A stretch of 34,941 nucleotides of DNA from a virus (Duplodnaviria; Heunggongvirae; Uroviricota; Caudoviricetes), in IMG/VR virus record IMGVR_UViG_2681813316_000026, one strand, 5' to 3'. A model generated the notes under the pieces. That model was not told where the DNA came from and ran no database searches. It was given only the letters and a program-made list of their open reading frames with translations. Made by a program: the position numbers and the translations under genes. Numbering within the stretch: position 1 is the stretch's first letter; every line of letters begins with the position of its first letter. Positions 32,374 through 33,325 of this stretch are shown here, in pieces.

Positions 32374-33147
32374 TCAAAAATTAGGTGAGTAACGGACCGG
32401 GGACATAGCTCCTTTTTTTCTTAATTCATCTGGTATTTTTTTTCCAAGATAAAGATTTGCTATTTCAGGTGGGGCTTCTCGACCTTCAAAACCATAGCGA
32501 GAACTTTGTGTTGCCTCAAAGTCCGGATCCTCGTCCCAGTATTTCATCGTAGGGAAATTTTCACGTGTTGATTTGAGCCATTTATCAGCAATGAAAACCC
32601 CTCGAACGATCCCCCTTACAGTAGCAAGAATGACTTCTGCTTGGCTGGCGCGAGAGACATTAATGCGCCAGCTAAATCGAACCGCATCATAAAGCTCTGA
32701 ATCCTTTGCACTTCTGTTAACGGAAATCATTAATGCTTTATGATGAAATGTTATGGTTTCGGGTTGATATGTTGCTATCAACTCTTTGACATGCGCGGCG
32801 CCGAATTCATTGCTGCCAGCACCATTCATGATATTCGTTAACCCAGGGTAGGCATCAATAAGTGCTGCTTCAACTTCGTACGCCGTCTTTTCATCAGTCA
32901 TTCCGTGTCGATGGATGACATGGATAACCTCAAGTCCTGCTAACCTTATTTCTCTAATTTGCTTTAGCTTGTTGCTCAGTAACTCGTCATCATCAGTCGC
33001 TGCCACTTCACCGCGCATATGGGCAAATACGCGGTTACCTTTGCCTTTCCCTACATAGAAGGTGCTTCCGTCCCTAGGATCAATCAATCGGTATACATAC
33101 CAGCCAAGGTGTTCAATTACTCCAGAAGGAAACTCAGTAATATCCAT
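32374..33147 (-). CDS. GIY-YIG nuclease-domain protein with an uncharacterised C-terminal domain
   Basis: N-terminal [27 protein letters not shown] plus downstream [15 protein letters not shown], resembling the UvrC-type GIY-YIG core. Probable start ATG at 33147 (the track ORF begins at a TTG at 33198). AT-rich, convergent with pin. Confidence 0.65.
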
Positions 33148-33325
33148 TTTGCAATATCTGTGAATTATTTGTGAGACGTATATTAATGAACATTGCAAGG
33201 GCTCACAACTAGTAGTGTTGAGAAAGCCATCGGGAAAATGAGGCTAACCCTTTGAATTTACATAGCGCAAAAAGATACCTTTCCTCATAATGTGAGCTAA
33301 TTTTATGTTTCGTTTGATGATCGGG

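Follow-up and report, generated by a model that had tools for sequence, protein, structure and literature searches.

PD-T4-3 was first recovered in a functional selection from the E. coli pangenome (Vassallo et al. 2022; PMC9519451), the text of which speaks only of "a GIY-YIG nuclease" and confines the name PD-T4-3 to the figures; strain ECOR68 was later named as the source of the original system (PMC12923530). In the latter study, Liu et al. (Nat Commun 2026) renamed PD-T4-3 to CMoRE and described it as a single-gene type IV restriction endonuclease. The genes from O157:H7 and Klebsiella, introduced into BL21(DE3) under control of their native promoters, decreased plating of phages T2, T4 and T6 by a factor of ~10^5, whereas the gene from APEC O1 conferred much weaker protection from its own promoter until a T7 promoter was swapped in (PMC12923530). 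Cells carrying CMoRE grow at an MOI above 1, with the host DNA untouched and the T4 DNA depleted, which indicates direct defence (PMC12923530). The enzyme binds and degrades DNA containing 5-hydroxymethylcytosine (5hmC) or glucosyl-5hmC but not DNA containing C or 5mC, requires two modified sites and generates 2-nt 3' overhangs by cleavage at CN11/N9G (PMC12923530).

Crystal structures are available for the enzymes of O157:H7 (PDB 9U75/9U8D) and of APEC O1 (PDB 9U7U/9U7Z). They revealed an N-terminal GIY-YIG domain that is closest to UvrC and contains an extra tyrosine, yielding a "GIYxY-YIG" signature (Y17, Y19, Y31), and the roles of these three tyrosines are known from mutagenesis (PMC12923530). 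A 15-residue acidic loop between α2 and α3 is autoinhibitory, as the corresponding 4A mutant is toxic and cuts ordinary DNA, and tetramerization is essential, as the V92S/L96S exchange abolishes function (PMC12923530). The C-terminal domain, for which no homologues are detectable, binds 5hm-dCTP in the co-crystal via the main chain of Y127 (PMC12923530). A homologue with 48% identity likewise depends on modified DNA and is dead when the active site is mutated (PMC12366544). Moreover, deletion of PD-T4-3 from its native chromosomal location sensitises E. coli NILS69 to Tevenvirinae (bioRxiv 2024.12.20.629700).

I-TevI, the Seg proteins, Eco29kI and Hpy188I belong to the same GIY-YIG superfamily as CMoRE, but these nucleases read sequence rather than modification, employ other DNA-binding parts and, in the case of Eco29kI and Hpy188I, are accompanied by a partner methylase. 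In comparison to the N-terminal domain of UvrC and to LEM-3/ANKLE1, CMoRE carries the additional tyrosine (GIYxY), the 15-residue acidic insert and the modification-sensing C-terminal domain, and unlike these GIY-YIG nucleases it has no role in DNA repair. PvuRts1I combines a nuclease of the PD-(D/E)XK type with an SRA-like reader. The PvuRts1I/AbaSI family shares its substrates with CMoRE (5hmC/5ghmC, not 5mC or C), and Liu et al. compared both and found very similar cleavage geometries around two modified cytosines (PMC12923530). Membership of CMoRE in this family was nonetheless rejected, because its nuclease (GIY-YIG) and reader folds are different.

We analysed a stretch of 34,941 nucleotides of viral DNA (IMG/VR record IMGVR_UViG_2681813316_000026, Caudoviricetes; hereafter referred to as the window). 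The listing of its open reading frames contains an ORF of 274 aa on the minus strand (32374..33198) with TTG as start codon, which the first-pass annotation had adopted as a gene encoding several GIY-YIG motifs. Gene and motifs proved real, but the start codon had to be revised. An in-frame ATG at position 33147, located 17 codons inside the 274-aa ORF, gives rise to a protein of 257 aa that starts with MDITEFPSG. This form is annotated by RefSeq as a CDS of 774 nt in syntenic genomes, and the native sequence of the crystallised proteins (9U75, 9U7U) begins at the same Met, while TTG 33198 falls within a promoter-like stretch. Therefore, ATG 33147 is probably the true start and the TTG lies 51 nt too far upstream. 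Counted from this ATG, the motif YVYRL covers aa 17–21, YVGKGKGNR covers aa 31–39 and the third motif quoted in the first-pass annotation covers aa 91–100. The CDS on the minus strand (32374..33147) comprises 257 codons plus stop and is the orthologue of ECs_0285 of strain Sakai.

The encoded protein can be aligned without gaps to the O157:H7 CMoRE of PDB 9U75 over 257/257 residues with 253 identities (98.4%), and to the APEC O1 enzyme of PDB 9U7U, again ungapped, with 85% identity; both structures were deposited under the name "GIY-YIG domain-containing protein". Strains TW10722 and STEC309 encode the identical protein (WP_000355484.1). ECs_0285, which resides in the Sakai prophage Sp1, has exactly the sequence of 9U75 and hence differs from the window protein at the same four positions, i.e. 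T51A, E55D, Q169K and N197H (residue of the window protein first), the former two of which are located in the acidic loop and keep its charge. In profile searches, the PADLOC model PDLC04031 (PD-T4-3) matched residues 1–256 along about all of its 256 positions (E 2.4e-140), the unnamed family PHROG 5356 matched over the full length, and the Pfam model PF22945 (LEM-3_GIY-YIG) matched aa 28–110 with 54.2 bits (cut-off 27). The generic Pfam GIY-YIG model PF01541 remained below threshold (13.9 bits, cut-off 22.6), Pfam detected nothing in the C-terminal half, and the NCBIfam profile search of the protein returned zero matches; the protein was recognised only by the LEM-3-like model of Pfam and by the family models of PADLOC and PHROG. 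The UvrC-like GIY-YIG core that had been proposed from the motifs is thereby borne out, both by the PF22945 match and by the structure of the orthologous domain, and the C-terminal domain previously left unassigned corresponds to the modification sensor of the orthologue. The suggestion of a single-gene, nuclease-based defence determinant also fits, as the protein is a close orthologue of a demonstrated defence nuclease. The implied novelty, however, does not hold: judged by sequence, the gene is already known, as its product is nearly identical to an orthologous restriction enzyme whose biochemistry and structure have been characterised. We are highly confident that the intact gene at 32374–33147 (minus strand) encodes an active CMoRE/PD-T4-3 enzyme, whose activity and phage range would be those of the O157:H7 orthologue. 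No sequence feature contradicting this assignment was found.

The domain architecture of the window protein is the same as that of the O157:H7 enzyme. [quoted passage not shown] All three tyrosines of the GIYxY-YIG signature, Y17, Y19 and Y31, are kept (G15-W16-Y17-V18-Y19; F30-Y31-V32-G33), and according to the alignment the residues of this signature are invariant even in phage homologues of 39–46% identity. The same applies to R39, E93 and N105, which are present in the window protein as well as in these distant phage homologues. The text of PMC12923530 notes conservation of the catalytic Arg and Glu without giving residue numbers; based on invariance and by analogy to UvrC, we infer that R39 and E93 may be the catalytic Arg and Glu, and N105 the Asn of the metal site. 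R80, the tetramer-interface residues V92 and L96, and the 5hmC-contacting Y127 occur at the same positions as in the characterised enzyme, such that all residues named in the text of PMC12923530 are conserved. The putative autoinhibitory loop, D52-D53-D54-E55 (32983..32994, minus strand), identified by sequence and assigned its function from the 4A mutant (PMC12923530), reads DDDE as in the APEC O1 enzyme, compared to DDDD in the O157:H7 enzyme. Jumbo-phage homologues are devoid of the acidic loop. The predicted C-terminal modification-sensing domain (~aa 120–257; 32377..32790, minus strand) was delimited by alignment to 9U75/9U7U; its boundary is approximate, as the linker is disordered in the crystals.

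By extension from the orthologue, the window protein would assemble into a tetramer, i.e. a dimer of dimers, whose C-terminal domains would bind 5hmC or glucosyl-5hmC at two modified sites that have to be ~21 bp apart. The N-terminal GIY-YIG domains would then cleave both strands at CN11/N9G, producing 2-nt 3' overhangs, while the acidic loop covering the active site would exclude unmodified host DNA. DNA of T-even phages would be destroyed upon entry and the infected cell would survive, i.e. the enzyme would provide direct defence rather than abortive infection. We also considered a toxic nuclease that kills the infected cell instead of restricting the phage DNA, as abortive infection is a common mode among single-gene prophage nucleases and as CMoRE becomes toxic and attacks ordinary DNA when its acidic loop carries the 4A mutation. 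However, wild-type CMoRE permits normal growth at MOI above 1, with intact host DNA and depleted T4 DNA, and the acidic loop is kept in the window protein as DDDE, making this explanation exceedingly improbable as compared to direct restriction of phage DNA by CMoRE.

The CMoRE gene is located next to pin (31759..32313, plus strand), an ORF that encodes a serine DNA invertase of the pinE type with 184 aa and is annotated as pinE in syntenic genomes. Both genes are convergent, with 60 nt separating their stop codons. An invertase crossover site of the pix/gix-like kind, AGCACCTTCTCCAAAACCAACGTTT, adjoins pin at 31673..31697, forms inverted repeats with 33–57 and 1766–1790 and resembles gix/hix sites. 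On the other side, no further ORF separates the CMoRE gene from a truncated tRNA-Ser (serU) 3' fragment of 62–67 nt (~33322..33388, plus strand), which represents an attachment-site remnant and is followed by ~285 bp of DNA from downstream of chromosomal serU, reaching to ~33676. This serU stretch was aligned to serU of FORC_042; almost every E. coli genome contains a serU locus with ~97% identity to it. ARAGORN detected no intact tRNA in the window, and Rfam reported a partial match to class II tRNA at the serU fragment; weak Rfam matches to CssrB, sX4 and a plastid element were dismissed as sub-threshold or as caused by the tRNA fragment. The first-pass annotation had correctly recognised an AT-rich gene that is the last of the prophage before the attachment-site core: the CMoRE gene has a GC content of 43.7%, compared to 49.7% in pin and 52.8% in the prophage body. 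The locus lies in the thrW–pao interval, and in complete relatives the integrase is found beside thrW, yet the core is serU-derived; a core of the thrW type was searched for in the window and discarded as a candidate, as none is present.

The usual gene order, as found in TW10722, STEC309 and Sakai Sp1, is tail fibre, invertible tail-fibre segment, pinE, CMoRE on the opposite strand, prophage end, AraC-family regulator and IS remnant. Further outward, TW10722 and Sakai possess paoD and a gene of the LysR family, which in TW10722 is a pseudogene remnant, and STEC309 contains an IS4-family element after the prophage end instead. The neighbourhood in Sakai Sp1 (pinE, CMoRE, AraC-family regulator, IS remnant) matches that in the window, and the right end of the window (31678–34938) is 97.5% identical to the right end of Sp1. 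The difference lies in the adjacent DNA: Sp1 is a defective prophage of 10.6 kb, whereas the gene in the window neighbours a full-length but rearranged prophage body. No methylase or accessory gene adjoins CMoRE, which is flanked by pin and by what is left of serU. In the assembly collection, >20,000 indexed blocks contain exactly this protein, which occurs at prophage ends at pao and at ssrA/smpB, beside a restriction-modification pair of the EcoRII type and at the terminus of a lambdoid prophage. CMoRE is a single-component system, lacking a partner in its neighbourhood and recurring as the same protein in several unrelated neighbourhoods.

This genomic context also bears on the question whether the gene could encode a GIY-YIG homing endonuclease, i.e. 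a selfish mobile nuclease. Such a function is suggested by a weak match of aa 17–149 to PHROG 314, "homing endonuclease" (E 0.002), and by jumbo-phage homologues (38–45% identity) that are annotated as homing nucleases. However, these phage annotations are names transferred on the basis of the GIY-YIG motif rather than tested functions, and the gene lies at the prophage end by the att remnant, outside of any intron, intein or conserved host gene. In addition, DNA-binding modules typical for I-TevI or Seg proteins are absent, the C-terminal domain is instead the one with which CMoRE senses 5hmC, and the orthologue selects its cleavage sites by modification and not by sequence. Given the non-homing context, the modification-sensor domain and the modification-dependent orthologue, a homing endonuclease was rejected as practically out of the question, and the gene is addressed as CMoRE in the following.

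Compared to the layout in TW10722 and STEC309, the prophage body (~1791–31126) is inverted relative to the pin/CMoRE end. The cI-side arm of the body ends at position 31126, where it abuts a truncated tail-fibre-assembly gene, and no integrase is present in the window. Positions 31127–31697 constitute a direct repeat of 571 nt (99.8%) of 1220–1790, and the pix-site region by pin recurs in inverted orientation at 1–57. The junction 31126/31127 is absent from 5,426 complete E. coli genomes and from the GTDB species representatives, and the chimeric ORF at the junction has no record in the gene-position index of the assembly collection. The pin-CMoRE end may be what remains of a second prophage copy, the alternative being a rearrangement or an assembly chimera in the window, and this end may accordingly belong to a prophage remnant and not to the complete-looking body next to it. 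The identity of the CMoRE gene is unaffected by the rearrangement.

The region upstream of the CMoRE gene (33148..33326, minus strand) is AT-rich (36% GC) and presumably contains the native promoter. The 198 bp preceding the ATG match the region in front of Sakai ECs_0285 with 100% identity, and therefore the native promoter that was functional in the experiments of Liu et al. is very likely present. A weak σ70-like pair, TTGTGA (33208–33203) and TAATAT (33185–33180) separated by a spacer of 17 nt, was recognised by eye; it matches the consensus at 8/12 positions, which is sub-threshold, and would place the transcript start close to 33173, downstream of TTG 33198. Since a scan for consensus promoters and terminators yielded nothing above threshold on the strand of the CMoRE gene, our promoter proposal draws on the identity to the Sakai upstream DNA and on these sub-threshold hexamers. 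A predicted hairpin (32313..32354; -22.5 kcal/mol; z -3.66 on the plus and -1.77 on the minus strand) lies between the stops of pin and CMoRE and was missed in the terminator consensus scan, as its loop is too long. It likely terminates pin transcripts and is possibly bidirectional.

The expression signals are relevant for the only rival reading that carries some weight, according to which the gene is intact but a silent or irrelevant passenger in a decayed prophage end, too little expressed to defend. Several observations fit this idea: the scan did not find a strong promoter consensus, promoter strength matters as the APEC O1 allele protects weakly from its own promoter, the orthologue of strain XJ55 is frameshifted, demonstrating that decay happens, and the prophage around the gene is rearranged. 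Against this, the ORF has full length and is identical to the most widespread allele, the preceding 198 bp do not differ from those of the O157:H7 gene, which is active from its native promoter, and the chromosomal PD-T4-3 copy of NILS69 is active. We therefore regard a silent passenger as a very unlikely explanation, and a functional CMoRE remains the preferred reading.

In prophage e14 of K-12, the gene order is stfE, pinE, mcrA, attR/icdC, confirming the earlier proposal that the CMoRE gene occupies the slot which in e14 holds mcrA, directly after pinE and before attR. McrA (EcoKMcrA) is an HNH nuclease with an N-terminal reader for 5mC/5hmC and is not known to act on glucosylated T4 DNA. 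Like CMoRE it is a single-gene type IV modification-dependent restriction enzyme, directed against phage DNA with modified cytosines (in part after PMC12529663). The two enzymes differ in orientation, McrA being co-oriented with pin and CMoRE convergent. No similarity between McrA and CMoRE appeared in our survey of such slots (blastp, E below 1e-10), in which no locus fell into both classes, and the CMoRE protein had no HNH match in Pfam at E up to 1. The relationship between CMoRE and McrA is positional and functional only.

For this survey, 80 IMG/VR contigs with a Pin protein 89–100% identical to that of the window were used, 74 of which had >=900 nt, i.e. at least 900 nt, after pin. CMoRE occupied 28 of these 74 slots, with 98.4–100% identity, always in convergent orientation and ~58–61 nt after pin, and McrA was found in five (5/74). 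Twelve slots (12/74) exhibited a different layout with tail sheath/tube-like genes following pin. The remaining slots carried Avs2, Septu PtuAB, a SIR2/ThsA-like protein of 936 aa, a Ppl-like ATPase and about ten proteins without PADLOC match. In view of this varied cargo, the slot after pin behaves as a defence hotspot. Among complete E. coli genomes, the CMoRE gene with its flanks was present in about 809 of 5,426, when presence of at least 80% of the stretch 32200–33420 was used as criterion. We tentatively raise the possibility, without favouring it, that the DNA between pin and attR in e14/SfV-like prophages is a dedicated and as yet uncatalogued defence hotspot, in which CMoRE and McrA alternate with Avs2, Septu, SIR2-type and Ppl-like systems, and that some of the ~ten unmatched families may be new defence genes. 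Less likely than this, the four substitutions relative to 9U75 may shift the specificity of the allele, e.g. towards phages with arabinosyl-hmC.

The GIY-YIG motif and the position by pin, read from sequence alone, were sufficient to predict a defence nuclease correctly, and CMoRE/PD-T4-3 can now serve as the annotation of the gene, denoting a type IV restriction endonuclease that targets phages with hmC or glucosyl-hmC (T-even). With two unrelated type IV enzymes in one prophage slot, this slot is worth searching for further defence genes. The strain carrying this locus is predicted to be resistant to T-even-type phages at a stage after adsorption, which bears on the prediction of host ranges in phage therapy.

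The DNA that follows pin, the serine DNA invertase gene, was surveyed over 3.5 kb in IMG/VR contigs L016-L095, which share Pin at an identity of at least 89%. The type IV restriction endonuclease CMoRE (PD-T4-3) was found in this slot 28 times and McrA five times, while Avs2 occurred twice and Septu PtuAB once; further cargo comprised a SIR2/ThsA-like protein of 936 aa (two cases) and a Ppl-like ATPase (one case). This range of cargo marks the slot as a hotspot of defence genes. Several cargo proteins had no match in PADLOC, i.e. those of contigs L031 (432 aa), L045 (280 aa and 269 aa), L046 (215 aa), L051 (343 aa), L058 and L059 (Cys-rich, HNH-like; 262 aa and 271 aa), L070 (312 aa), L072 (313 aa), L073 (345 aa) and L076 (502 aa).

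In some genomes, represented by loci L007 and L008, an identical CMoRE gene adjoins genes for an EcoRII-type endonuclease and a C5 DNA methylase, which are located 1.9–4.6 kb upstream. With these neighbours, it makes up a small group of defence genes where the prophage ends. In E. coli XJ55 the CMoRE orthologue (locus L001, 6175–6949) is annotated as frameshifted, indicating that the gene decays in some lineages.

An attachment remnant is present at 33322–33676, consisting of the 3’ part of the tRNA-Ser gene serU and ~285 bp of serU-downstream DNA. Despite this serU-derived remnant, the window locus itself corresponds to the thrW-pao (CP4-6/Sp1) region, and in complete relatives the integrase is positioned at thrW. 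A shorter, degenerate copy of the serU-derived tRNA-like piece likewise follows the CMoRE gene in strain STEC309. The occurrence of a serU-type remnant in the thrW-pao region, together with the degenerate copy in STEC309, suggests that an exchange took place long ago between prophages located at two tRNA sites.

The pin/CMoRE end and the prophage body have opposite orientations, i.e. the body is inverted, and position 31126 is the cut point of its cI-side arm. A direct repeat of 571 nt, which comprises the N-terminal part of the tail-fibre-assembly gene, the variable tail-fibre end and the invertase crossover site pix, is found at 31127–31697 and at 1220–1790 (99.8% identity), and an inverted copy of 31673–31729 occupies positions 1–57. 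No integrase gene was found within the window, and the junction 31126/31127 had no match in 5,426 complete E. coli genomes, GTDB representatives or the gene index. Segments 1–1790 and 31127–31729 with this junction either belong to a second prophage end or result from rearrangement or chimeric assembly.

Within the prophage body, two AT-rich genes (7137–7667 and 22429–23025, both minus strand; local GC 36–39%), which are embedded in the tail module and in the lysis/late region and had no match in Pfam or PADLOC, may be moron cargo. A small AT-rich gene (20114–20434, minus strand), flanked by lysis genes and HNH/terminase genes, encodes a protein with borderline similarity (Pfam, 26.7 bits; cut-off 26.8) to GrlR, a negative regulator of type III secretion. 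The Dam-type N6-adenine methyltransferase (26248–26934, minus strand; Pfam Dam, E 1e-45) and the HNH endonuclease, which adjoins the terminase small subunit in the usual arrangement (19671–20021, minus strand), are ordinary phage genes. A run of overlapping 15-nt units (27960–28034; consensus CAGATTTTGACGGGT) within the replication-initiator-like gene 27373–28332 looks like origin iterons.

Full-length CMoRE homologues (38–46% identity, both domains covered) are encoded by lytic jumbo phages such as Serratia phage Moabite (L096, 2501–3265) and Pseudomonas phage OBP (L097, 2492–3253), where they are annotated as homing nucleases. Residues Y17, Y19, Y31, R39, E93, N105 and Y127 are conserved in these proteins. 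However, they lack the acidic autoinhibitory run of CMoRE, having KDASN and PHSTD at the same place. The jumbo-phage homologues may serve as weapons that these phages carry against competitor phages containing hmC.
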